From sequence record OP870143.1: a DNA stretch of 64,000 bases. One strand, written 5' to 3'. Made by a program: the position numbers and the translations under genes. This DNA is from Escherichia phage vB_Eco_F22. The notes under the pieces are model-generated. The model was not told the DNA's origin and made no database searches. It saw only the letters and a list, made by a program, of their open reading frames with translations. This document shows, piece by piece, positions 31,501 through 64,000 of this stretch (its first letter is position 1; the number at the start of each line of letters is the position of its first letter).

Positions 31501-34500
31501 CAGGGTTGGTACTATCCGGGTCAGCCATGAATGCTTCAACGGTCAGATTCTTAGTAACGTGTGCATAGTATTCCTGTGCACGAGATAGAGCAGCCGGACT
31601 AATAGCAGCCTCAGTAGCCAAAGCAGCAACGATATTAGTGAACAGGCGTTGTTCCTGCATATTCATAGTGAAACCATGAGCCTGAACATCACGGGTTACT
31701 TTAGTAGCATTCACTACTGCATCAGAGAACTTACCTTTACGAATTACTTGTTGCACTGGTTCTGAACCAATGTAGTTAGTAATCAGCTTATCAAAGGTCT
31801 GCCCCAATTCTTCCAGACGGGTATTGTCGCCATACGCCTTGTTATGGAACAAGGTAGTGTCCTTGGATACAGCAGCCGTAGGAGCCTGCCCACGCATAAC
31901 TACGGAAGAGTTAAACAGTAAGCCAGAGAACATATCATCTGCATTAGCAGGAGCTTTCTTACGACCGAATACCAGACGCTTGATTGCTTCATACACAGAC
32001 TGAACCATAGTCTTCAGTGCAGTAGTCTTCTTCTGCTTACTAATTAGTTCACGGTTGGTTAAGCCCCAAGCCATGTATTCGTTCAGTGCAGCAGCTTTAG
32101 CCATTGCCGGTTCAATGAAGCCATTAGACAAGTGACCGTTAATGGTATTGAGTGCATCAGCATATGCTTCACGTACTGCCGGGGTTTCATCCTTAACATC
32201 CAGAGTACGGAACTGGTTCATCAGGTCTTCAATATTCTGAACTGCTTCATTAGGAGTACCCTCATAATGAGCCAGTACAGATTCAAAAGTAGAAGCATGT
32301 ACCAATTCATGAACCAGAGTCTCTAAGGAAGGGGTAACTAAGTAGATGGTCTTATCATCAAAGTTAGTCCAGCCATATGCATTACCAGCTTCGGCAGCTT
32401 CAATATCTTCCGGTGCTGGGCGAGTAATGTTCTTCTCAATAGCATAAGCATCCAGCTGAGCAGGAGTACCGTAAACAACCTTGTAGTCTTTAGCAGCAAG
32501 GGATTTCTGTACTTCTTTCAATACCGCTTGCTGTTCAGGAGACATCTCTTTAGCCAGCTTAGTGATAGCAGTATTAGACAGCAGACGTACACCAGACTTC
32601 AGTACACGACCAACCTGTTCCATTGCTGGTACTTCTTTAACAGGTGTTTCTTCAGCAGGTACTTCTTTCACTGGTTCTGCTTTAGCAGCACGTACTGCAT
32701 CACGGCGCTTATTTAATTCGGCATCAAACAGTTCGTTTAGCTTAGCTACTTGCTGGTCTACAGTCAGACCTTCCAGAGAGATTTTACCGTTGTTCACATA
32801 AGGAGCACCTACAGCAGCCATCTGGTCAACAGTGGTCTGTACCTGGTTCATTACTTTGTGGCGAATATCTACACCTAAAGCAATGTTACGCAGATTACGT
32901 TCAATGAGGTTAACACCGGATTTCTCAATCATATCAATCTTATACTGCCTGTCTCCCTCAACACGACTGATATGGGAAAGCTGTTCAAAATCTAAAGCGG
33001 AACGAGCAATGTCATCAATTGTCTTATCTGACAACTTATTAAAGTCTACGTTCTTCATGAACTTAGAGAAGGAGTCATACACGTTCTTAATAGGATTGCC
33101 CTGCCAAGAAGTATAAACAGCCTCATTAGCTTTACGACTTGCATCAGTGATGTCATTGATACCAATGTTCATACCATCAAAGATTTTCAGGGTATTCTTC
33201 GGAGCACCTTTCATAGTAGAAAGGGTCTGCATCATCATGCCATCACCAGTACCAATGGTCATAAATGGAATACCTGCAACACCTGCTTGTGAAGGAGCAT
33301 AGATGCTCATTGGCACACGCATACGGTCGTCTAAGTTGGTAGCCAGTACTTGGTTAGCAACATCAGTATTCTCACTGCCAGCAATGTAAAAAGTCTGTGA
33401 ACCAGTCTCAATCATTGGAGCCAGTGGAGACAGGGATTTCTGAATTTCATTCAGCTCTTCCTGTGTTAAGAAATCGCCCTTCTTCCAGGTTGGGTCTTTT
33501 TCTTTTTCTGCCAGTTTAGCCTGTACTGCTTGTTGGAACATATCCTGCAATACTAAAGACTGAATTTGAGTAGCCTTCTGCAAGTTCTCAGTGGAGTGCA
33601 TCAGACCTTCACCAACGGTGAACCGGATACTTTGTCTCATTGGTTCAACGAAGAAGTGCAACATGTTCTCTTGTAGGTTCTTAAGAGCATCACCAGATAC
33701 AGTAAACTCCTGGGGATCTAACTCACCAGTCAGAGCACCATCTACTTCCTTAATAAATAACTTACCTTTACGCTTAGCTGGAATCTTACCAGTCAGTGCT
33801 TCCATAGAAGTAAGGAAGGTATCCAGCATAGCCTGAGCATCTGCCTCAGACGCAGCCTCCTTACCAAACAATGCCATAGCTGGGGAAATGCTAGGGTCAG
33901 TAGCACGTGCTTGTAGAACGTCACTGAGGCGTTCGTAGATGGCGTCAGTAATTGCACTAACCATCTTGCCAGCAATACCACGAGCACCAGAACCATAGAT
34001 GGTAATGGTCAGGGGGTTTTTAGCGATGCCACGTTTCAGGTCCAGAGTACCGTCTTCATTCAGGTTAAAGTCTTTAATGAACAGGTCCATTAGCTTCTGG
34101 AGATGATCCATCTGGCTCATAACAGGAACGTTGTTACGGTAAGCACTACGTAATTCATTTAGATAGAATTGCAAACTATTGGTAGATGCTTCATACAGGT
34201 CAACATTATCGTCGATAGAGCAATGTTCGTTCATCGTTTTACCAGCACGACCAAAGAACAAACCACCCTTGGCAGTATTCTTAATCCAATTTGGAGTGAA
34301 CTTACCTCCAGTCATTAATACCATTGCGTTGATTGGGCCGTTGGTTACACCATCGGCTTCAACGTACAGAGGAGTATTAAAATTAGCACGGTTATCACTG
34401 TTCAGGTAACGGGCATATTCCATCAGAGCCATGAGAGCCACGAAGGATTTGTTATCACCCAAAGAGGTCTTCAGGATATCTACTGCATCTGTCGGTAAGT

Positions 34501-48936: not shown

Positions 48937-51207
48937 TTACAGGTTCATGCCAAGAGCCGATGCTGGGTCTTGGCTAGGGTCATAGTATTGGGAACTAAGT
49001 GAATAAGCCGGGTCTTGTTGAGCAGCTAAATCACGTTCTGGTATAGAGTTCCCGTCAGTCAAAGTATTATATCCAACAGCAGCAGATATGTTGGGGGTAG
49101 TTTCCCCTTCTTTAATAGGTGTTGTCAATGCCTTAGTTATCTGAAGGTTCTGGTTTCCTTGGGATTGTGCTTTTTGTTTTTCCATATCACGAGCATGTTT
49201 AGTACCAGATTCCTGTTCCAGATAATCCAGGTCTTTAAGGTCACCAGCAGAAGCAGCCTCTTTAGCCTTAGCCATATTGAGTGCAATCTTACTTTGTAAC
49301 TCTTCATTCTCAAGCTGTGCTTTCTGAATTGCCAATTGCTTAAGCTGTTCTTCCATAGGGTCTGGTTGTGGTTGCCAGGTACGTAACTCATGGGCCAGGT
49401 CAGGCATACGTTTAAGTTCTGCAATCTTAGCTACAAGAGATAATGTAATAGTCTGGTCAACCGTATTACCCAATGTTTGAACCATGAAGCTCAAGTCCTG
49501 AGATTTCTGGTTATCAATTTCAGCAGTGTTAATATCAACCTCAATGTCGAAGTTACCTTTAAGGTCTTCACGGTTAATCTCTACATACTGCTCGTTAGTA
49601 ATACGTACGACTTCTTTCTCAGATAAGAACACAGCATTCATTGCACAAATCTTAGTACCAATGTCTGCCATACCTTTAGCCAATCGACGAAGGATTGCCA
49701 TCTCACGTTTGGATGCTGCATCAAGTGCACCACGAATACCGGCAGCCACATCTCCATAAGCTGAACCAGTTACACCACCAGAGAATGCTTTGACCCCAGT
49801 TAATGCTTCTGCTTCCTGGTTTTGCATCTGAGTCATTACTATTGCTGACTGAGGTAACTCAGGGAACTTATGTTCCATAATGGCCTGACTAGGATTACCT
49901 TGCATTGGGTTATATTCATAGTCTTGTCCATCGTCATATCGACGTCGGTTTAGTGTATCCAGCATCCCTTTAGGATAACCACGTTGACCATTTGCACTTC
50001 GACCTAACAGGTCAATCATCCCACGCATAGTTGCACCAAGAATTGCTTGGTTATCTCCTAACAGTTCAGCATCAGCTTCACCGAATAGCTCTCGTTTACG
50101 TGGCATGTAAGGAACAACTACCAAAGGTAACTTACCATCCGGGAAAGGGTTCTTCTCCATACGAATAAGAGTAGAGCCAATCCAGGTAGCAACAATTGGT
50201 TCCAGAGAACCATCATCATTGATGTCGTAAAATCCCCAGTACTCATAAGCAACGACTTTCTTACGTAGTGCATCCTTAAACTGGAAGTCGCTTGGAGTTT
50301 TACTCTCATGGTCTGGATCAGTCATAGGACTGGAGCTTTCCCAATCAATCTTATCTAAATTGTGGTAACGATCTTTGTTCTTCATGAGGTCTGCTTTACA
50401 TGTCTCAAACGAGATAACTGCATACAGAGCCTTATCCAAATCACCATTACAACTAGGGTCAATAACTACGTTATTAGGGTTAAGCATTTCAACGGTGGGT
50501 CTGTTAACCAGTGCCTTCTCTACTTCTACTTCAGTAACCCCAGTCTGGATTGCATAGGTAGCTTCCCCAGTTTCATTGAAGTAGTTAACAGCTTCTTTAA
50601 TATCTTCAGGCATTGTTTCATCGTACTCACGAGGATTCTCTGCCTGAAGCTGTAAAGCCTGTTGAAGAACATCTGCCTGTTCCTGGTTCTCAATTGGATA
50701 CAACTGAAATACTGGAGTTTCAGTTTTAATCTTAACAGTCTTACGTTCCCAACCAATACGAGCAATACCAGTACCGTCATCTACGACACTGTGTACGTAA
50801 TCATCTATCAGTTTCACTTTATTAAGCTGGGTACGGAATTGGTAGTTAAGAACTAATTCATTCTGACGTGCAGCTAATTCATCTTCAAAAGTAACCGGAG
50901 TTACTTTAAAGAGTTTATTAGATGAGAGGAATGGTTCAGACAATGGAGCATATCGCCACTCTGCCTGACGGCGAACCAGTCTAGGCTGGACTTGCGAACG
51001 TCCCTTAACCTTTGGGGGTTTAGCCTTACCCTTGACTTCCATCAGGTCATTCCACTCACGAATCTGTGCCATAATCGCATCGTGAGCAGGTTTAGCTGAT
51101 TCCAAATCACCCTTCAGCAATTGGATACTTGGTTCCTTCTTCCAGTCCGTTATCTTCTCTGATTGAGCCGGGTCTGGTAAAGGCTTAAAAGTGTCTTGGT
51201 GTTCCAT
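48937..51207 (-). CDS. portal protein
   Basis: 756 aa; size and position (upstream of scaffold and capsid genes, downstream of lysis cassette) match N4-type portal. Confidence 0.7.
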
Positions 51208-51215
51208 AGTTATTC

Positions 51216-51716
51216 CTATTCAAAAAGTTTACGGTCAGCCTGAATTTGTTTACCCAACTCAATTAGTTGGTTGTCACGGAGTCTAACAGTTGCCCGGAGT
51301 TCTTCAACCAAACGTCTGCCTTCTTCAAGACTGTTGTCGAGTCTGGCTGCATGGCTTGCAAGACTTCTGCACTCAAGGGTTCCGGCTTCGGCTTGACGTT
51401 TATATACCGATGCTCGTCTTTCAGACTGTTGCATCCGGCTGTCGTAATCACTGCTAACGCGAGCAAGCTCGCTTGCGTAATTACTCTCAGCCGTCTGCAA
51501 CCGGGAAGTGAGTAACCCGACTTCATAACTATGGTTTCTTTGGAGAGCATTGTATTTGTCCTGTAGTTTTTGTATTGCCTTCAGGTCTTCAACCTTTTGG
51601 ACATCCCACTTCTTTTGAACAGTAGACTGCCCATTGGAATTGCCCCAAAAGTAAATGGTGGCCCCGAGGACCACCACCAGAAGATAAGGCCAACCTTTAG
51701 AGATTAGCATCTTCAT
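51216..51716 (-). CDS. i-spanin (Rz-like)
   Basis: N-terminal TM ([21 protein letters not shown]) then coiled-coil-prone periplasmic domain; last gene of lysis cassette. Confidence 0.5.
51263..51526 (-). CDS. o-spanin (Rz1-like) embedded in the i-spanin gene in another frame
   Basis: Lipobox [12 protein letters not shown] followed by a Pro-rich short periplasmic domain; fully inside 51216-51737 in the +1 frame. Confidence 0.5.
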   Translation of the reverse strand: MKSGYSLPGCRRLRVITQASLLALAVITTAGCNSLKDEHRYINVKPKPEPLSAEVLQAMQPDSTTVLKKADVWLKNSGQLLDSVTTN

Positions 51717-52582: not shown

Positions 52583-52899
52583 GCGAATATCTCCCGTCTT
52601 GCAGCAGCCAATACACCAATAATTGCACCTGCTCCAGCCCAAACCCACTTACCAAAAATCCCAGCACCGGCAACTTTATGTTTAATGGTGATGAACTCTT
52701 CAATGGTGGGTTCAGACTTAGTGATGCTCTCTTCTACCCGTTTAAGTCGGGTACTAAGGTCGCCCATAGACTCACTTAGCTTTTTAATAGACTCTTCCAT
52801 TTTCTCCCTTTCTCTCGATTCACGAGTTTGGTTTTCGAAAATGTTTCTCAGTCTCTCCTCGAGTCTGGCTAGAGTTACGTTATCTGGTTCATTTCCCAT
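52567..52899 (-). CDS. lysis-associated membrane protein with coiled-coil N-terminus and C-terminal TM
   Basis: Charged coiled-coil segment then GAGIFGKWVWAGAGAIIGVLAAA hydrophobic helix; first gene of the lysis cluster. Confidence 0.4.
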   Translation of the reverse strand: MGNEPDNVTLARLEERLRNIFENQTRESREREKMEESIKKLSESMGDLSTRLKRVEESITKSEPTIEEFITIKHKVAGAGIFGKWVWAGAGAIIGVLAAARREIFAWFAS

Positions 52900-52970
52900 A
52901 GGGACTTTCTCAGGTTAGTTAAGTCGTGATTGACTGAAACAGTCTACATAAAGGATTGTTTGGGATACAA

Positions 52971-53005
52971 CAAAAAAGCCCCCAGACGGGGGCTTTGTTT
53001 TATTT
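52971..53005 (-). terminator. Rho-independent terminator (minus strand) after the tail fibre gene
   Basis: agccccc-agac-gggggct with tttttt on the minus strand. Confidence 0.65.
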
Positions 53006-55259
53006 AGGTGTTATCAGCAACTACCTCAAGTACTCCGTTATTAGAACGAAGGCGTTTGTAAGTACTATCCCCCACATCTCGGAGTATAATCCCTTTGGTA
53101 GCATACATAGTACCGAAACGTCCATCCTTAGAACCAATATCCTGCAAGGAATCTGTTACTGCTGTCATAACCCCTGCAACACGATTAACTTTACGGGCAT
53201 ACCAGACATTTTTGCCAACATCTTTATCCATAGCAACATCGAAGTTAAAGTTTGCAGTATTGGTAGATAAACCATTCATTGCTGCACTAGAAGTATCAAC
53301 AGTAATCTTGAGAGTACCTCCAGTAAGTCCATCAGCAGAAACGTACAACTCTGCATTCTTAAAGTTACGAATGCCACCTAGACCATTGGCAAAGGTAACT
53401 TTAGATGCATCACCATAAACAATTAACCGATTCTCTTTGAATCGTTCTGCGTAAAGACCGAAAGGAGTAGCGTCCTGATCTTCAATATTAATTGTTGCAT
53501 GGTTAGTGTTAATGGTGGGTGGGATACCAAATGTAATAGTATTCCCTTTAAACTCTTTAACTTTGAAATTCAAACGATACTCATCAGCATAATCATTTGC
53601 ATATCTGTTCTGAAGTTCACAATCAATAAAGCTATAACACTCAAAACCCATAGCAGCAGGCCAGCCAGTATCAATAATACTGCCTATGATGGTTGTGCCT
53701 ACAAACTTAATATTACGGGCATTACCAGCATTGGATACAGCACCCTCAGAGTGCATACTATGTAGCACGCCACCCACAACCAGAATATCGTTAACAGTCC
53801 CCGGTACGGATACAGTCTGGAATGCACACTTACCGGTGTTAACAATTTTAGGGTTAATAACACGAATGTTGTAAGGGTTTCCCCCTTCAGCTTCAATATC
53901 AATACCTGCTTCCGGTCCGGTATAATGAGTACCAATCCCACCAGCTTTATTGCCTGAGCGGGTAATTACTGGATTAATGATATCAATGTTAGCTCCACCA
54001 GTCAGGGAGTAGCAGTTGCGCCCACAGGAATCCCAGTAACAGTCTTCAATAACAGTGCGTGGAACAATATCCAAGAAACTGAAGCTACCGGTAGATTGAT
54101 GATATAAGCCATCTACAGGCGAATTAAGGTATTTATGTCGGTAAACACGAGCACCTGCTGACTGGTTAATCCACATGTTATAACAAGGAATCTGATAACC
54201 AGTGTTACCAAACTTACCCCCCCATACAGCAGAGGCTAAGTTACCATCACTGGTCCCACCATTAATTACGACGTTAGGTGCTTTGTACAGTTTAATAAGA
54301 AAACCTTGGTAAGCCATATAGCTATAATCAGGGGTTTCAGCTACAACATCCGGTGCAATAGAACCAGTAACAGGATCAAAAGCCCCTAAACGCATACCGT
54401 CATTAATCTTAAGTGTCCAGTTACTCATCTCCAGTTCGATATTAGCATCCGTCATATGAATGGAGAACCAGCCTTTAGCAGAAGCATCTGTCCAGGCACG
54501 CTGCTCATAGGAAGGTTTATAAGAACCACCCTGACCAGTAGAACCAGTGAGATACTGGGAACCTACTAAACTAGTGCCAGCAGGGAATATCACCTTAACC
54601 GGTTCAGTTACCTGTGTGCTTAAGTATTGACCCAATTCCCAAAGAGCGTCTGCGTTATCAGCAGAGTCAACAGTTACACCAAAATCCGTAGCATAGATTA
54701 CACGTCTACCCATTAAATCCATGTTAGCAGCTACGTTGGTATTAATTGCATTAGGCATACGAACATAGGGAACTTCTTCAGACTTAACTAATGGGCTTAA
54801 CTTACTCCAGGCATCATTAGCTACACCACCTGAGTTTTCTGGTGTAGAGGATGCCGGGACAACTTTAGGGAATGCACCATTCCAAATATAATACTCACCA
54901 TTATGAATCAGTCTTTGGTTTTTAACGGTAAGGGTAGCCCCAGTAGTAAATGAACCGGGAGAGTTAATATACTCCTTACGTTCTACAGCCAGAGCACCTA
55001 AGTCAACATTACCAGCAGAGTGAACTAATACCCCAGCAGGACTAAGACTTACAGCAGTAACACCTGAACCAATATCAGCAGGTAAGGAGTAAGCACGCTG
55101 TGACGCTTTGTCATAGATGACTTTATAACCGCTTAGTACAGCACCAGTAGAGAAGTAAACAACCTCAGATTGCTTAACCCCAAAGTGACGGGCTACTGCT
55201 TGTTTGTTGGTTAAGATTCCAGTTGAACCCTTACCACCTTGTGAAAACATTTCGTTCAT
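53004..55259 (-). CDS. tail fibre / tailspike protein (beta-helix-like)
   Basis: 751 aa rich in Gly/Asn/Thr/Val repeats typical of right-handed beta-helix tailspikes. Confidence 0.6.
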   Translation of the reverse strand: MNEMFSQGGKGSTGILTNKQAVARHFGVKQSEVVYFSTGAVLSGYKVIYDKASQRAYSLPADIGSGVTAVSLSPAGVLVHSAGNVDLGALAVERKEYINSPGSFTTGATLTVKNQRLIHNGEYYIWNGAFPKVVPASSTPENSGGVANDAWSKLSPLVKSEEVPYVRMPNAINTNVAANMDLMGRRVIYATDFGVTVDSADNADALWELGQYLSTQVTEPVKVIFPAGTSLVGSQYLTGSTGQGGSYKPSYEQRAWTDASAKGWFSIHMTDANIELEMSNWTLKINDGMRLGAFDPVTGSIAPDVVAETPDYSYMAYQGFLIKLYKAPNVVINGGTSDGNLASAVWGGKFGNTGYQIPCYNMWINQSAGARVYRHKYLNSPVDGLYHQSTGSFSFLDIVPRTVIEDCYWDSCGRNCYSLTGGANIDIINPVITRSGNKAGGIGTHYTGPEAGIDIEAEGGNPYNIRVINPKIVNTGKCAFQTVSVPGTVNDILVVGGVLHSMHSEGAVSNAGNARNIKFVGTTIIGSIIDTGWPAAMGFECYSFIDCELQNRYANDYADEYRLNFKVKEFKGNTITFGIPPTINTNHATINIEDQDATPFGLYAERFKENRLIVYGDASKVTFANGLGGIRNFKNAELYVSADGLTGGTLKITVDTSSAAMNGLSTNTANFNFDVAMDKDVGKNVWYARKVNRVAGVMTAVTDSLQDIGSKDGRFGTMYATKGIILRDVGDSTYKRLRSNNGVLEVVADNT

Positions 55260-55279
55260 ATAAACCTCATTGTTTTTCT

Positions 55280-55305
55280 ATAAAAGCCCCCTCGGGGGCT
55301 TTCTT
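55280..55305. terminator. intergenic GC hairpin of the AAGCCC family between the two tail genes
   Basis: aaagccccc-tcg-ggggcttt. Confidence 0.45.
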
Positions 55306-58300
55306 TAAAAGAATTGAGAATCAATTGAGTAGGTAATTGTCCCACGTAATTCAGCAGTAGGAGTAATGTCCGATTCTAATAGTGCTGTCGTAGCCTCTTC
55401 AGGCTGTTTAAGTATTTGAATTACATTAGACCCTCTATTCATTACTACAGAAAGTTGTGGGGTTCCTGGTTGCAATCCAGTATATGCACTAATAGTACCA
55501 CTTGCAGCATTCTTAGCAGGGTAGGGCATATTACGTATTTGCATAGCACCCGTTTGACCACCTGCACCATTAAGCTTAATAAAGAACTCTACGGTAACTG
55601 TATTACCTGTTTTAGTGTACTTAATATCTTTAGTAGCACCTCCCACATCTGAGGTTACTGAACCAAAAGTAATAGCTGCAAGGGGAACGTCAGCAGTTTC
55701 ATTCCATGCCTCAAAATTGATGAGGTTGGAATCTCCAGTTACAATATGTATAAACTTGTTGCTGCCAGTATTAACAATAATCTTAGAGCCAGCAGCATTA
55801 GCACTTACCCCAATCTTAGGCAGTTCTCCATTAGAGAAACGTCCATTGTTAAAGACAATATGGTTGTTAGGTCCATGTATCCACATATCCCTGGAGTATG
55901 TAGTTCCATATGCTAAAAAAGTATTAAATATGATAAAGTTATCATTACCTACTGAAATTAAAGGGTTTTGCTCATTTGTTTTAGGCAAGCAATAAAAATC
56001 ATCAACAGTCATATCATTGCCAGAATTAAAATGAGCAGCTACCCCATAACCTGCATCAGTAGCAGATGGTAACTCAGAACCACAACCACTAATGTGAAGT
56101 CCATTGTTATTGTCAAAGTAATAGGCAGTACGCACCGTACCATCAGAAGCACAGCTTTGCATATTACCATATTGATGATTCAGGATACGGTACGCCCCTG
56201 GTGCAACAGAAGGATCTGTTACTTTAGCAAAACAGTTTCTATAGTTAGCGGACGTACCACCCTCATGTAATATCTGACCCCAGGCACTAATATTACTAAT
56301 TTCAGTCATCCACACTTCTTTCATCCAAAGTGCAATTTTGGTTTTTAGAAAACCAAGATGATGCAGTTTAAAATTATGACCTTGTAATATTACTAAACCT
56401 GCTTCGCCCCCAGAGTCATCCCCCTCAAAGGTAATCCCCTCAATTATAGTACCAGCAGGGAAAGAATTTGCTTGGGGTTGATCTGGGTTAACATAACCAA
56501 CTGTATCTACTGTTAATGGCCCTACTGGTGTACCACTACCCATAGAAGAGGTCAGTGTAATGGTATCATTACCAGTCTTTTTAATACGTCTGGTTGAAAT
56601 AGGTATAGACCTACTTTCGGTAAACCTTAAGTCGTGATTACCTATATATGTTTCATACGAATCAAACATATAACCTGTAGATGGTGCTGAGAAACCATTT
56701 CTAATGTTGGCATATGAAATATCCAAAGCACTTTTAACATCCATAGCAGTATTAGTTATGGGTTCTTCATAACCAATGGTTGTTGCACCACCAATTGCTG
56801 CTAATTCTTGTTTATGCTTGGGTACTAAATCTTCCGCTGAATTTGGCACCCCAGAGTCATCCCCCTCAAAGGTAATCCCCTCAATTATAGTACCAGCAGG
56901 GAAAGAATTTGCTTGGGGTTGATCTGGGTTAACATAACCAACTGTATCTACTGTTAATGGCCCTACTGGTGTACCACTACCCATAGAAGAGGTCAGTGTA
57001 ATGGTATCATTACCAGTCTTTTTAATACGTCTGGTTGAAATAGGTATAGACCCACTTTCGGTAAACCTTAAGTCGTGATTACCTATATATGTTTCATACG
57101 AATCAAACATATAACCTGTAGATGGTGCTGAGAAACCATTTCTAATGTTGGCATATGAAATATCCAAAGCACTTTTAACATCCATAGCAGTATTAGTTAT
57201 GGGTTCTTCATAACCAATGGTTGTTGCACCACCAATTGCTGCTAATTCTTGTTTATGCTTGGGTACTAAATCTTCCGCTGAATTTGGCACAGGAGTTAAA
57301 GATACAACTACATTACCAGGCTGGTAAGTTAACTGACCATTACTAACGGATGCAATGTATACATTAGTAGGCAAAGCAGGTAACCCATACGCCTTCTGTT
57401 CACTAACAGAGTAGACAATCTTCTTATCATTTAGGAATTGAGTGGTGTCAGTACTAAGAATTACCTCACTATCCTTAACGTTAGCTGCACGAGCCACTTC
57501 CTGAACAGTATGGTCTACTATTTCAAGTATCTTAGCTTCCCCACCTAACTGGACAATCAAACGATCATTGGTTGCTAATGGTTCAGTAAGAATGATTTGG
57601 TTGTTATCTGCGTCAATTGTATAGGAGTTATTGGCTAACCCTTTGTAGAATCGTAAACCATTTTTATATACAGCTGGTACAGATTGGAAGGTATAGGGGA
57701 TATCAATTACCTGTTCCCCACCTACAGCAGCTCCATGGTTGTACAACCAGTTAAGGGTTACCCAATCGGAAACGTTAGGATTATCTGGGGTTGCAGGAAC
57801 ACCAGTACGCATTACTACTACAAAGTCACCCGATTCCAGTGGCGTAGCGAAGCTAACCTCAAAAGCTACTGGGTCGTACTCAAAATCATATCCCTCAGTC
57901 TGCCAGTCACCATTAACAATCATAAAGGGTGCACCAGCCGTTTCATCCGGGATACGAATGGTAGTCTCACCACCATTAGCAGAACCAGAGTTATAAATCC
58001 ACGGGATGTATCCACCATCATTGGTAGACTCGCCACCATCTCCACCAGTACCTGAAGTAGCTACCTTAACCCATGAACCAGTTGCAGTAACATCATCCGG
58101 GATGACTCCAGTACGATCACCCTCTACGTACAAGTAGTCAGTAACCTGACGGTCACCAGCAGGAGTCTTATCATAGATACGGGCAAAGGTAGCCTTAGTA
58201 GTTAATGCTTTAAGTTCTGCTTCAGACTGTACACCAAGAACCATTCCATACTGGTTCAGGAAGTCGTAGATAAGTTTCAGGTTACCCAAGTTACAGTAGA

Positions 58301-58427
58301 CAGTACGAACCACGTGGTAAGCATTACCAAGCAGTGCATCTACCATCGGGTCATTGGAACTGTTCTGGCAGTAAGGATTGGTCCAATCCTGTTTTGCATC
58401 GAAGGGGGTATGTGCGTTCATCGCCAT
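55305..58427 (-). CDS. large tail appendage/receptor-binding protein with an internal tandem domain duplication
   Basis: 1040 aa; a 147-aa segment (PNSAEDLVPKHKQELAAIGG...ITFEGDDSG) occurs twice in tandem. Confidence 0.6.
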   Translation of the reverse strand: MAMNAHTPFDAKQDWTNPYCQNSSNDPMVDALLGNAYHVVRTVYCNLGNLKLIYDFLNQYGMVLGVQSEAELKALTTKATFARIYDKTPAGDRQVTDYLYVEGDRTGVIPDDVTATGSWVKVATSGTGGDGGESTNDGGYIPWIYNSGSANGGETTIRIPDETAGAPFMIVNGDWQTEGYDFEYDPVAFEVSFATPLESGDFVVVMRTGVPATPDNPNVSDWVTLNWLYNHGAAVGGEQVIDIPYTFQSVPAVYKNGLRFYKGLANNSYTIDADNNQIILTEPLATNDRLIVQLGGEAKILEIVDHTVQEVARAANVKDSEVILSTDTTQFLNDKKIVYSVSEQKAYGLPALPTNVYIASVSNGQLTYQPGNVVVSLTPVPNSAEDLVPKHKQELAAIGGATTIGYEEPITNTAMDVKSALDISYANIRNGFSAPSTGYMFDSYETYIGNHDLRFTESGSIPISTRRIKKTGNDTITLTSSMGSGTPVGPLTVDTVGYVNPDQPQANSFPAGTIIEGITFEGDDSGVPNSAEDLVPKHKQELAAIGGATTIGYEEPITNTAMDVKSALDISYANIRNGFSAPSTGYMFDSYETYIGNHDLRFTESRSIPISTRRIKKTGNDTITLTSSMGSGTPVGPLTVDTVGYVNPDQPQANSFPAGTIIEGITFEGDDSGGEAGLVILQGHNFKLHHLGFLKTKIALWMKEVWMTEISNISAWGQILHEGGTSANYRNCFAKVTDPSVAPGAYRILNHQYGNMQSCASDGTVRTAYYFDNNNGLHISGCGSELPSATDAGYGVAAHFNSGNDMTVDDFYCLPKTNEQNPLISVGNDNFIIFNTFLAYGTTYSRDMWIHGPNNHIVFNNGRFSNGELPKIGVSANAAGSKIIVNTGSNKFIHIVTGDSNLINFEAWNETADVPLAAITFGSVTSDVGGATKDIKYTKTGNTVTVEFFIKLNGAGGQTGAMQIRNMPYPAKNAASGTISAYTGLQPGTPQLSVVMNRGSNVIQILKQPEEATTALLESDITPTAELRGTITYSIDSQFF
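56408..57290. repeat. tandem direct duplication, 2 x 441 bp with a single mismatch
   Basis: Copy 1 ~56408-56848 and copy 2 ~56849-57289 are identical except T at 56612 versus C at 57053. Confidence 0.85.
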
Positions 58428-59128
58428 CCTCGTTGTTCAAATTTAGTTTCGGTAATTGAAATACTTCCATTAGCTAGGTCGTAATCAACAACCTCACCAC
58501 AGATGCTTTCATACGTTTGCAGATATTCTGCTGCTTTAGCGTTAGCTTCCGGGGTATTCAAACCAGTGTGGTAACGGTAACCCACCCAGTTATGAAGTGC
58601 CGTCATTAGCGTATCAGCTAAATCAACTTCCTGTTCTTCATCCCCCGTAAGTACTGGGTGCTTAGCTTGATACGTTACGTTAAGTGCCTCGAAGTGTCGA
58701 GGTCGCATACACTGAATAGTATCAGGCCGTGGGGTGAAAATAGCACGAGGGTCTGAGTCGTCGTTCAGTCTACGTCGATTCCCAGAGTTATCAAACACAT
58801 TTAAGATTTTAATAACATCATCCTGGAAAGGTTTCATGAACCCATCCATGATGTACGGATATTGAACCTCAAGTGTAGGCTTAGTAAATCTGGAGTAAGC
58901 ATATTTGGATTGAAGAGGGTAATCGGTGCGACCTTCCTTCATCTCCACAATGCAGCTATTTGTCTTAAGAGGGAAACGACTATGCAGTCGTACCAGTCCT
59001 TCATTAATAGCTGCCAGTATCTCCGGCTTACTATCTGGTTCAATATCTAATCTGTCATCCGTGACTGCACCAGTACCCTTCAAGGTACTCAGTGCTAAGC
59101 CACGGTATACTTCCGATAATTTCTGCAT
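58418..59128 (-). CDS. virion/tail-associated hypothetical protein
   Basis: 236-aa ORF between terminase and tail genes. Confidence 0.5.
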   Translation of the reverse strand: MQKLSEVYRGLALSTLKGTGAVTDDRLDIEPDSKPEILAAINEGLVRLHSRFPLKTNSCIVEMKEGRTDYPLQSKYAYSRFTKPTLEVQYPYIMDGFMKPFQDDVIKILNVFDNSGNRRRLNDDSDPRAIFTPRPDTIQCMRPRHFEALNVTYQAKHPVLTGDEEQEVDLADTLMTALHNWVGYRYHTGLNTPEANAKAAEYLQTYESICGEVVDYDLANGSISITETKFEQRGWR

Positions 59129-62468: not shown

Positions 62469-62748
62469 AGGGGAGTCCATGTACACAACTGACTTCTCTT
62501 TAGAAGAAGTCATGAATAGCAAACCACAGCATGTAATCCTGGTTCCTACCTTAGAGGATTACCATGAAGTAAGAGGTCAACTCTTCCTAGCAGGTAATGA
62601 TCGTAAGGTTGTGTGTATCATTCCTCCTTCCGTCTATATAGATAGTAGTGCTTATGACGCTATACCCTTCATGTTGGTATCCGATGACTACCAATGGGAT
62701 ACCAGTTATGAGAATGAGGAATACCATTACTACTATGTAAGGAAGTAG
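62434..62748 (+). CDS. small protein, paralogue family member 3
   Basis: Strong RBS AAGGAAGGAG; core VILVPTLEDYHEVRGQLFLAGN; 104 aa. Confidence 0.55.
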   Translation: MKFLMTAPSFVKGESMYTTDFSLEEVMNSKPQHVILVPTLEDYHEVRGQLFLAGNDRKVVCIIPPSVYIDSSAYDAIPFMLVSDDYQWDTSYENEEYHYYYVRK

Positions 62749-62751
62749 GTT

Positions 62752-63072
62752 ATGCATCCGTACTGCCTCATTAGTTTTGCCACTACTTGCTATTTATCCC
62801 CATACACACTGGATAATATTCTGGCAGGTAGGGGTAGAGTTACCACTATCTTATACGAGCCAAGTGAAGAAGCAGATGTGTTCGTTGGTACTTGCTTAAT
62901 GTTGGGGCAACCTATCCGATTCGTTAAGATAGAAGATTCCGTAGAAATACCGGAACACACCTCCGTGTACATACTCTCTGAGAATGAACCTATGGTAGCT
63001 ACTACTCTTACAGGGAGACTCATTACCCTATATCCTTCCTCATATTTATCTAGCGACGAGTGTACCAAATGA
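62752..63072 (+). CDS. small protein, paralogue family member 4 (divergent)
   Basis: Core TILYEPSEEADVFVGTCLMLGQ; 106 aa. Confidence 0.5.
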   Translation: MHPYCLISFATTCYLSPYTLDNILAGRGRVTTILYEPSEEADVFVGTCLMLGQPIRFVKIEDSVEIPEHTSVYILSENEPMVATTLTGRLITLYPSSYLSSDECTK

Positions 63073-63720: not shown

Positions 63721-63922
63721 GATAGTTATAATATTTTTGCATACCAATTTGGTCATAGCTATGTGTAACTGTAGTGGTGTGGCAGGGGCTACACCCTTAC
63801 ACTCAACCATCCCCCCCGGTATGTTGACCGTGTAGCCACTACCCTACCCCACCTTACACGTTACACGTTGCTCCGCAACCTATGGACATGTCGTCCTATC
63901 ATCAACTATTGGAGCTATCATC

Positions 63923-64000
63923 ATGACTACTACCGCTACTGTACGTATGACCGCAGGAACTTTACTTGGTACTGTTAACTCTGCTGCAACAGTAGTAGCA
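63923..64000 (+). CDS. 5' end of a gene running off the window (partial CDS)
   Basis: ATG at 63923 with GGAG RBS; open to the window end (MTTTATVRMTAGTLLG...). Confidence 0.3.
   Translation, partial: MTTTATVRMTAGTLLGTVNSAATVVA

Follow-up and report, generated by a model that had tools for sequence, protein, structure and literature searches.

We examined a 64-kb window of the genome of Escherichia phage vB_Eco_F22 (the whole stretch of DNA analysed, 64,000 nucleotides), in which a minus-strand tailspike gene contains a long tandem repeat (Table 1). The product of this gene is 100% identical to P0001 (WBF79665.1), recorded as 'tail fiber' of Escherichia phage vB_Eco_F22 and annotated from Met3 (1038 aa). 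The genome is N4-like and includes a 3615-aa virion RNA polymerase open reading frame. The order of genes is that of the E20 and G7C annotations, with the repeat-bearing gene lying between those for a gp63.1-type tailspike and a gp67-type adaptor, and these adjoining genes match Tail_spike_N and SU10_adaptor. The repeat-bearing gene is the G7C-gp66-type branched tailspike gene of an N4-like Gamaleyavirus. Promoter-like and terminator-like sites between 52500 and 59500 do not exceed the shuffled expectation. The window reaches about 220 bp into what appears, from G7C and E20, to be the equivalent of the terminal repeat, and the remaining 7.8 kb of the record, whose sequence lies beyond the window, seems to exceed its E20 counterpart by about 444 bp.

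Table 1. Features of the tailspike locus in vB_Eco_F22, in positions of the window; a slash marks the duplication junction.
Feature	Position	Strand	Details
gp66-type (RBP1) branched tailspike gene	55305..58427	-	1040 aa; from the open reading frame list and translation
N-terminal anchor and branching module	57291..58427	-	aa 1-379; outside the duplication
Copy 1, N-proximal	56850..57290	-	aa 380-526; probable ancestral Gly459; C at 57053 (+ strand)
Copy 2, C-proximal	56409..56849	-	aa 527-673; probable derived Arg606; T at 56612 (+ strand)
Rest of receptor-binding module	55305..56408	-	aa 674-1040 and stop; main right-handed beta-helix body, C-terminal beta domain
Between-copy difference	56612		T versus C at 57053; first base of codon 606, AGx Arg versus GGx Gly
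Novel duplication junction	56848..56849		+ strand ...GAATTTGGCA / CCCCAGAGTC...; protein ...FEGDDSG / VPNSAEDL...
Second tailspike (RBP2), gp63.1-type	53004..55259	-	751 aa; N-terminal docking domain; Pfam PF18668 Tail_spike_N, E 1e-18
Near-E20-identical tract	52859..58873		6 kb; spans the two tailspike genes and the beginning of the gp67-like gene; from base-level comparison

The two parts of the protein have different relatives. In phmmer searches against the PDB, aa 1-385 match Moo19 gp82 (9d80_D, E 2.5e-141), aa 140-386 match CBA120 TSP2 (6w4q, E 1.2e-24) and aa 101-211 match 7rej/7rfo 'Tailspike protein', while phrog_12242 'tail protein' spans aa 3-396. From these similarities, the N-terminal module is predicted to serve in virion attachment and, through gp10-like domains, in docking of the second tailspike. 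Across the 5' part of gp66, DNA identity to more than 20 Gamaleyaviruses is 75-91%; this homology to the gp66 genes of other Gamaleyavirus members breaks off at approximately 57316-57325, some 30 bp from the repeat boundary. The C-terminal module is an exchangeable receptor-binding module with a predicted beta-helix tailspike fold, modelled here as a monomer. It is covered by an alignment with 18 homologues, and the same module occurs on N-termini of the P22, TSP1 and T7 types. The AlphaFold monomer model (mcf29d93a6d62, pLDDT 85.9) is a right-handed beta-helix whose best Foldseek matches are the phage tailspikes 6f7k, 6eu4, 5w6p and 1qq1, the fold resembling the tailspikes of Det7, AS12, CBA120 and P22. 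The neighbouring RBP2 gene also matches PHROG tail spike families and is annotated 'tailspike protein' in E20; its product is the putative partner of the duplicated gene's product in a branched adsorption apparatus.

A branched apparatus of this kind, built from gp66 and gp63.1, is known from G7C (Kulikov 2012; Prokhorov 2017; both as cited in bioRxiv 10.1101/542787 and PMC10408124). The vB_Eco_F22 gene resembles G7C gp66 in its position and in the conserved N-terminal anchor and branching module. In contrast, its receptor-binding module represents a different allele. Only E20 and two metagenomic gp66 homologues share it, and its identity to tailspikes from prophages and metagenomes, P22-like ones among them, is 41-57%. 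Among members of the G7C gp66 type, only this one shows an internal duplication.

The repeat occupies 56408-57290 and consists of two copies of 441 bp plus one base. Tandem Repeats Finder reports a single array over this interval (period 441, 2.0 copies, 99% matches, no indels, score 1759). In a base-by-base comparison at a lag of 441, every position from 56408 to 56849 matches its partner except 56612, where T stands against C at 57053, and identity is at background level directly beyond the repeat limits. This repeat is far beyond chance, and the window contains no other direct repeat of at least 40 nt. Because 441 is 147 times 3, the frame is kept across both copies of the repeat. These results bear out the initial annotation, which had described a near-perfect tandem duplication, in frame within a tail appendage gene, whose copies differ by one base and one Gly/Arg residue: the array and the lag comparison agree on the former, base comparison and translation give the latter, and the open reading frame that holds both copies is a receptor-binding gene. 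Copy 1 starts in the linker 'VPNSAEDL' at the end of the conserved anchor, and copy 2 is continuous with the remaining beta-helix. Microhomology at the junction is limited to 1 nt (C). Near the boundaries we found no convincing inverted repeats, a 12-nt pair (56397-56408 and 57370-57381) being probably due to chance.

Structure prediction, one of the checks proposed in the initial annotation, shows how the unit relates to the fold. The 147 residues comprise the linker between anchor and spike, an N-terminal cap and roughly four rungs at the start of the beta-helix. Their C-terminal boundary falls between strands of a continuous, conserved beta-helix, right after the near-invariant FEGDDSG motif, whereas upstream the unit begins at aa 380, within 'PVPNSAE(D/S)L', the linker motif with which the conserved anchor ends. 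ZQ2 gp66 has this linker motif too but an unrelated receptor-binding module, and homology to other tailspike families starts about 10 residues past aa 380. The repeated unit is thus a fragment of a fold and not an autonomously folding domain. Two consecutive in-frame copies of 147 aa are present as first described, but they are not the domains they had been called, and a protein with a beta-helix tailspike fold is not a fibre of serial domains that could be lengthened by one more. In an AlphaFold model of the two-copy protein, copy 2 is the one built into the helix and the N-proximal copy is disordered (pLDDT 23-38), which is weak evidence, the homologues having been aligned to one copy only. 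An ancient internal repeat was ruled out, since the unit does not significantly resemble any other part of the module or of the protein. As translated, the product would consist of an intact anchor (aa 1-379), an extra partial copy and an intact receptor-binding module formed by copy 2 and the remainder (aa 527-1040), the 147 additional residues amounting to a second linker, N-cap and about four beta-helix rungs.

Comparison with homologous genes in related phages, likewise proposed at the outset, finds one copy in every relative: E20, the two metagenomic gp66 homologues (P0021 and P0022) and about 20 prophage or phage tailspikes. Apart from its single copy, the E20 gene differs at one base. 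E20, P0021 and P0022 all carry the Gly allele, and Gly occupies the variant site in 16 of the 18 homologues; the ancestral state was probably one copy with Gly, and Arg would be derived. The 6-kb tract differs from E20 by two substitutions only (56612 and 57598) and has no indels, while the DNA that flanks it is 3-8% different. Among 1.84 billion protein representatives there are eight genuine matches to the unit, each with one significant copy and none with a tandem double, and none of the IMG/VR relatives has a tandem double either. Of the matches with several reported stretches, the two of P0024 are a single copy, P0028 is spurious and of low complexity, and P0029 (four stretches, E 2e-4) is a weak match, probably to a repeat or low-complexity protein. 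The viral, metagenome and genome contigs searched contain no match to a 29-nt probe for the novel junction, nor to one for the left boundary in its ancestral form. From the latter it follows that the allele is rare at the DNA level; this result bears on neither the reality of the duplication nor an artefact. Neither the 1040-aa product nor the annotated 1038-aa P0001 is recorded in independent assemblies, and the duplication is known from a single record. On the isolation and sequencing method of vB_Eco_F22 and E20, a literature search returned only mentions in lists and trees, and there is no sibling phage of the same naming series among the 60 of 118 related records listed.

Of the explanations first offered for the repeat, a recent duplication, a site of copy-number variation and an assembly artefact all remain live. 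We lean, with moderate confidence and on comparison of sequences, towards the view that the gp66-type tailspike gene has undergone a real in-frame tandem duplication, which would be very young and is probably unstable. An illegitimate event, either a template switch during replication or non-homologous recombination, in each case with only 1 nt of shared sequence, would have fused the base that follows the 'FEGDDSG' codons with the one that precedes the 'VPNSAEDL' codons on a sister template. The upstream boundary would then fall in a flexible linker that connects the conserved anchor to the exchangeable receptor-binding module, and the protein would not be destroyed. The extra piece would most likely be a poorly ordered or partly folded spacer rather than a new functional domain, and docking of the second tailspike and virion attachment should stay unaffected. 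The change of Gly to Arg in copy 2 would be a later mutation at a conserved turn glycine. Since two identical copies of 441 bp recombine readily with each other, instability is to be expected, and different copy numbers probably coexist in the phage stock. The C-terminal modules of gp66 are known recombination hot spots (bioRxiv 10.1101/542787; PMC10408124).

The main rival is an error of assembly or finishing, which we regard as a serious but distinctly less probable explanation. A 441-bp overlap between two contigs, or between the ends of a single contig, would have been left unmerged on concatenation, and the mismatch would be a low-coverage consensus error or a polymorphic site. Near-perfect identity with one mismatch is typical of unmerged overlaps, and untrimmed overlaps occur in this phage group, as in the exact 127-bp overlap at the ends of the E20 record, because of which E20 was evidently assembled with k = 127. 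The vB_Eco_F22 repeat shares with such overlaps a near-perfect duplicated stretch that has no biological counterpart in relatives. However, these overlaps lie at record ends or at a rotation joint and are usually exact and equal to the assembler's k-mer, whereas the vB_Eco_F22 repeat is internal to a gene, contains a mismatch, is in frame, starts at a protein module boundary and has a length that is no standard k-mer overlap. A de Bruijn assembler, moreover, should be unable to create the junction without reads that contain it, but overlaps left by overlap-layout assemblers may still be compatible with an internal repeat of this length. The position of the boundary argues for a real duplication, since a random assembly break would come this near the junction of anchor and receptor-binding module in well under 1% of cases, and it is at exactly such a permissive site that a viable duplication is expected. 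Preservation of the frame has a 1-in-3 chance in an artefact and is required of a viable variant. The quality of the sequence points the same way: two substitutions and no indels in 6 kb relative to E20 indicate high quality, the tract around the repeat is otherwise error-free by this comparison, and there is no other duplicated segment in the window. Against a real duplication stands the substitution between the copies. With one difference from E20 in the 5.6 kb around the repeat, at most about 0.08 substitutions are predicted in 882 bp; the one observed is thus more than expected in so young a duplication and is more easily explained by a consensus error or polymorphism at overlapping contig ends. 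The downstream boundary, which cuts a conserved, structured beta-helix in a unit that is no structural domain, also tells against a real event, as does the extra copy, which is not predicted to fold and so makes a fitness cost plausible. Finally, an artefact would account for a duplication that is unique to one record and has no tandem double in the protein and IMG/VR searches.

If the duplication is real, it is also conceivable, but in our judgement unlikely, that selection has kept it. The 147 residues could lengthen or loosen the stalk between anchor and helix, or copy 2 could loop out as a 'fin', and either change could alter reach or host range, as proposed for the tail fibre duplications of phage EfV12-phi1, the Gly-to-Arg change then being a subsequent mutation, either adaptive or compensatory. 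In-frame duplications of adaptive value have precedent among receptor-binding genes, one non-synonymous change has already arisen in an otherwise almost unchanged tract, and placement in the linker leaves both modules intact. Yet the lack of a tandem double in relatives and representatives, the poor predicted folding of the extra copy and an Arg at a site where glycine is conserved, which looks more like damage than tuning, weigh against selection. We attach similarly low probability to the broader proposal that a real duplication is an intermediate or by-product of module exchange at the gp66 anchor linker, or else a selected 'stalk extension' or looped-out insert. Even less probable is an older duplication shared with relatives, two copies being the normal state of the allele and having collapsed in the short-read assemblies of E20, an ENA contig and a Logan contig. 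The exact sub-repeats of 204 and 236 bp exceed the k of 127 of E20 and would tend to collapse, and the closest relatives, among them P0021 and P0022 from metagenome and Logan assemblies, are short-read assemblies that may have collapsed such a repeat. However, these relatives are all Gly, with no mixture of alleles, homologues further removed, taken from complete genomes, are single-copy, and an identity of 440/441 argues for a very young event. A template and variable repeat pair of a diversity-generating retroelement is effectively refuted by the anatomy of the repeat, and we give it hardly any credence. On the coding strand the one differing site has A in one copy and G in the other, which fits such an element, but the copies lie in tandem in mid-gene rather than as a 3'-terminal variable repeat with a downstream template, they differ at one site only, and the near-identical E20 genome has no annotated reverse transcriptase. 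A unit of 441 bp is also far longer than typical repeats of these elements.

The closest known parallel to a real, young duplication is the Enterococcus phage EfV12-phi1, in which in-frame tandem duplications of 1.8 kb arose repeatedly in a tail fibre gene and were established by PCR and long reads (Wandro et al. 2019, PMC6365445). In both cases a segment of a receptor-binding gene stands head to tail with a near-identical, in-frame copy, and the duplicated region carries an occasional SNP. The duplication is absent from the ancestor or closest relative of EfV12-phi1 and may be so in vB_Eco_F22, whose relatives E20, P0021 and P0022 have a single copy in short-read assemblies that could have collapsed a repeat. 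The duplications of EfV12-phi1 lie in the fibre of a myovirus, range in copy number from 1 to more than 4, originated in parallel under coevolution and are demonstrated by read coverage as well as by PCR and long reads. In contrast, vB_Eco_F22 offers one record with two 441-bp copies in the beta-helix tailspike of a podovirus and with one boundary inside the fold.

Should the repeat be an artefact, the public record of vB_Eco_F22 would contain a 441-bp error and a tail fibre protein inflated by 147 residues, by which host-range predictors trained on receptor-binding protein sequences would be misled. If the duplication is an exchange intermediate or a stalk extension, a trimeric beta-helix tailspike would tolerate a 147-residue N-terminal partial self-copy, and copy number at the junction would vary within the population and modulate host range. 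If it is real, vB_Eco_F22 would provide a natural case of the receptor-binding genes of virulent phages changing by means beyond point mutation and module swapping, through a fresh partial self-duplication placed exactly at the junction of anchor and receptor-binding module. It would also give a handle on how much the folding of beta-helix tailspikes tolerates and on how unstable duplications are in phage stocks, a matter relevant to the quality control of therapeutic phages.

We found a single tandem array at 56408-57290 with a period of 441 bp, 2.0 copies, 99% matches and no indels (Tandem Repeats Finder), and in a base-by-base comparison at a lag of 441 every position from 56408 to 56849 matches except 56612 (T) versus 57053 (C), with identity back at background directly outside the repeat limits. 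Both analyses thus confirm, as written, the initial annotation of a near-perfect 441-bp tandem duplication with one mismatch. It is the only direct repeat of at least 40 nt in the 64-kb window. Separately, the 3615-aa virion RNA polymerase ORF present in the window contains, at 32628-32688, a short and imperfect tandem repeat of 30 bp (2 copies, 80% matches).

G7C-like coliphages of the genus Gamaleyavirus (Schitoviridae, N4-like) match the window at 91-97% identity. The repeat sits in a minus-strand ORF of 1040 aa (55305-58427), whose product is 100% identical to 'tail fiber [Escherichia phage vB_Eco_F22]' (WBF79665.1). Judged by its position between a gp63.1-type tailspike gene and a gp67-type adaptor gene, this gene is the orthologue of the G7C tailspike gene gp66, and its N-terminus agrees: PDB matches that confirm the assignment include the Moo19 tailspike gp82 (aa 1-385; 9d80, E 2.5e-141) and the branching domains of CBA120 TSP2 (aa 140-386; 6w4q). 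Residues 101-211 also match 7rej/7rfo, chains deposited as 'Tailspike protein', which we take to be the CBA120 TSP4 N-terminal structure (PMC8825819). The gp66 and gp63.1 proteins form a branched tailspike pair with conserved N-terminal parts and C-terminal parts that recombination exchanges (bioRxiv 10.1101/542787; PMC10408124).

Repeat copies and neighbouring genes, in window coordinates
Feature	Position	Strand	Residues	Remark
Copy 1 (N-proximal)	57290-56850	minus	380-526	variant residue Gly459
Copy 2 (C-proximal)	56849-56409	minus	527-673	variant residue Arg606
gp63.1-type tailspike gene	53004-55259			Pfam Tail_spike_N
gp67-type adaptor gene	58418-59128			

The upstream boundary emerges from an alignment with G7C, ZQ2, the near-identical relative E20 (OP745616.1) and two metagenomic gp66 homologues. 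The conserved N-terminal anchor ends in the linker '...SLTPVPNSAEDL', of which ZQ2 has 'PVPNSAESL' in common before an unrelated module. Homology of the receptor-binding module to other tailspike families (P22-type with a head-binding domain, TSP1-type and T7-type proteins) begins about 10 residues after the linker, at 'HKQELAA...', and DNA homology to other gp66 genes ends at about 57316-57325. Together, these limits place the start of the duplication (V380) inside the linker between anchor and receptor-binding module. A metagenomic gp66-type protein (P0024, 893 aa) has a receptor-binding module 40% identical to that of vB_Eco_F22 and a similar linker ('IPGSSEEL'), so that this β-helix family must have joined the gp66 anchor at least twice.

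The downstream boundary falls within the fold. In a single-copy AlphaFold model (copy 2 plus the remainder, 514 aa, 18 homologues in the alignment; mean pLDDT 85.9), the module is a right-handed parallel β-helix followed by a C-terminal β domain, and its top PDB matches (Foldseek) are the phage tailspikes Det7 gp208, AS12 gp42, CBA120 TSP2/TSP4 and P22. The 147-aa unit (model residues 1-147) takes in a linker and cap modelled at low confidence (helices 5-17 and 38-44) plus roughly the first four rungs (strands 53-142); it stops immediately past the near-invariant 'FEGDDSG' motif, at a point between strands 140-142 and 150-158. Since it ends inside a continuous β-helix, the unit is not a domain, and the proposal that the fibre gains one extra domain is not supported. 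No similarity between the unit and the rest of the module was detectable. A two-copy AlphaFold model places copy 2 in the helix and leaves copy 1 disordered (pLDDT 23-38), which is weak evidence, since homologues align to one copy alone.

On the plus strand the array reads ...TGCTTCGC / CCCCAGAGTC...GAATTTGGCA / CCCCAGAGTC...GAATTTGGCA / CAGGAG..., with slashes at the breakpoints, which have one base (C) in common and no more. We therefore reject homologous unequal crossing-over as the route; the duplication would have originated in an illegitimate event, through template switching or non-homologous joining. Examination of inverted repeats and of promoter-like and terminator-like sites revealed nothing notable. 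The new junction (56849-56867, minus strand) puts a purine-rich run, GAGGGGGA, 11-18 nt upstream of an in-frame GTG (Val527); an internal start there would yield the complete 514-aa receptor-binding module without the anchor, at a spacing longer than optimal.

E20 matches the whole gene at 99.9% identity, over 2,682 bp instead of 3,123 bp, and has one copy. When either copy is deleted in silico, the version keeping C (57053) has a single difference left from E20, at 57598 (Gln277 versus Leu). This makes one copy with Gly the ancestral state and Arg606 a derived residue. Two metagenomic gp66 proteins with the same module, P0021 (ENA, 890 aa) and P0022 (Logan, 893 aa), have one copy with Gly; 16 of 18 homologues carry Gly at this site, and all 18 of these more distant proteins, as well as two IMG/VR relatives, have one copy. 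Among 1.84 billion representatives searched with the unit (phmmer), none of the 10 hits has a true second copy, and the novel junction sequence is absent from three contig collections.

Window and E20 differ by 3-8% across most of the late region; over 52859-58873, which takes in the two tailspike genes and the beginning of the gp67-like gene, they differ at 56612 and 57598 alone, with no indels. This near-identity means that the host-recognition cassette was shared very recently and that the duplication is younger still. Further identical tracts exist (e.g., 50000-51500), a mosaic showing that Gamaleyavirus lineages have exchanged DNA by recombination very recently. Directly downstream of the second tailspike gene, some 120 bp in from the left end of the tailspike tract, is a perfect GC-rich hairpin of 9 bp flanked on each side by T runs (52975-52996; bidirectional terminator-like). 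The stretch most divergent from E20 (62500-62999, 123 differences in 500 bp) is a small-gene region near the right genome end. The window end (63780-64000) corresponds to at least the first 209 bp of the 1,160-bp G7C terminal repeat, so the record continues past the right genome end into the terminal repeat; by calculation, the remaining 7.8 kb of the record, beyond the window, would be ~444 bp longer than its E20 equivalent.

We lean towards a real duplication. The reading frame survives, for which the chance is 1 in 3, and one boundary lies at the sole site in the gene where an insertion spares both modules; a random contig end would fall there in well under 1% of cases, although the coincidence was noticed after the fact. 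The neighbouring sequence is clean, 441 is not a k-mer overlap length, and an assembler needs reads for any junction it makes. There is also precedent in EfV12-phi1: PCR and long reads verified in-frame duplications in its tail fibre gene (PMC6365445). A finishing or assembly error, which we regard as possible but somewhat doubtful, would fit a duplication known from one record and a downstream boundary that cuts the fold, and unmerged overlaps are common in phage records. It would also fit the mismatch count: at one substitution per ~5.6 kb, the two copies (882 bp) should hold at most ~0.08 substitutions, and the one observed is mildly surprising. The mismatch is compatible with consensus error or polymorphism, or with a redundant copy under relaxed or positive selection. 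That the duplication is adaptive is unlikely.

Short-read assemblies tend to collapse a near-perfect tandem repeat of 441 bp. P0021 and P0022 come from such assemblies, and the E20 record opens and closes with an identical 127-bp sequence (positions 1-127 and 71573-71699), the signature of a k = 127 short-read assembler whose circular-assembly overlap was left untrimmed. E20's single copy could in principle be a collapsed repeat, and the one-copy state of all three is thus weaker evidence than it looks. An older duplication collapsed in the other assemblies is very improbable.

If the duplication is real, the intact anchor (aa 1-379) should allow normal virion attachment and docking of the second tailspike, and the full receptor-binding module (aa 527-1040) would be intact, native linker included. 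The 147 additional residues would be inserted at the linker between the modules, where they probably serve as a flexible or partly folded spacer in each trimer chain. Alternatively, copy 1 could provide rungs 1-4, with copy 2 and its damaging Gly-to-Arg change looped out at the FEGDDSG turn. β-helix tailspikes accept large inserts in turns, such as the P22 'dorsal fin'. On general phage genetics, recombination between the copies should restore one-copy genomes, so that copy number is expected to vary within a stock. Whether recent tandem duplication or finishing error, this is an ordinary kind of event, in a gene already well known as recombination-prone.
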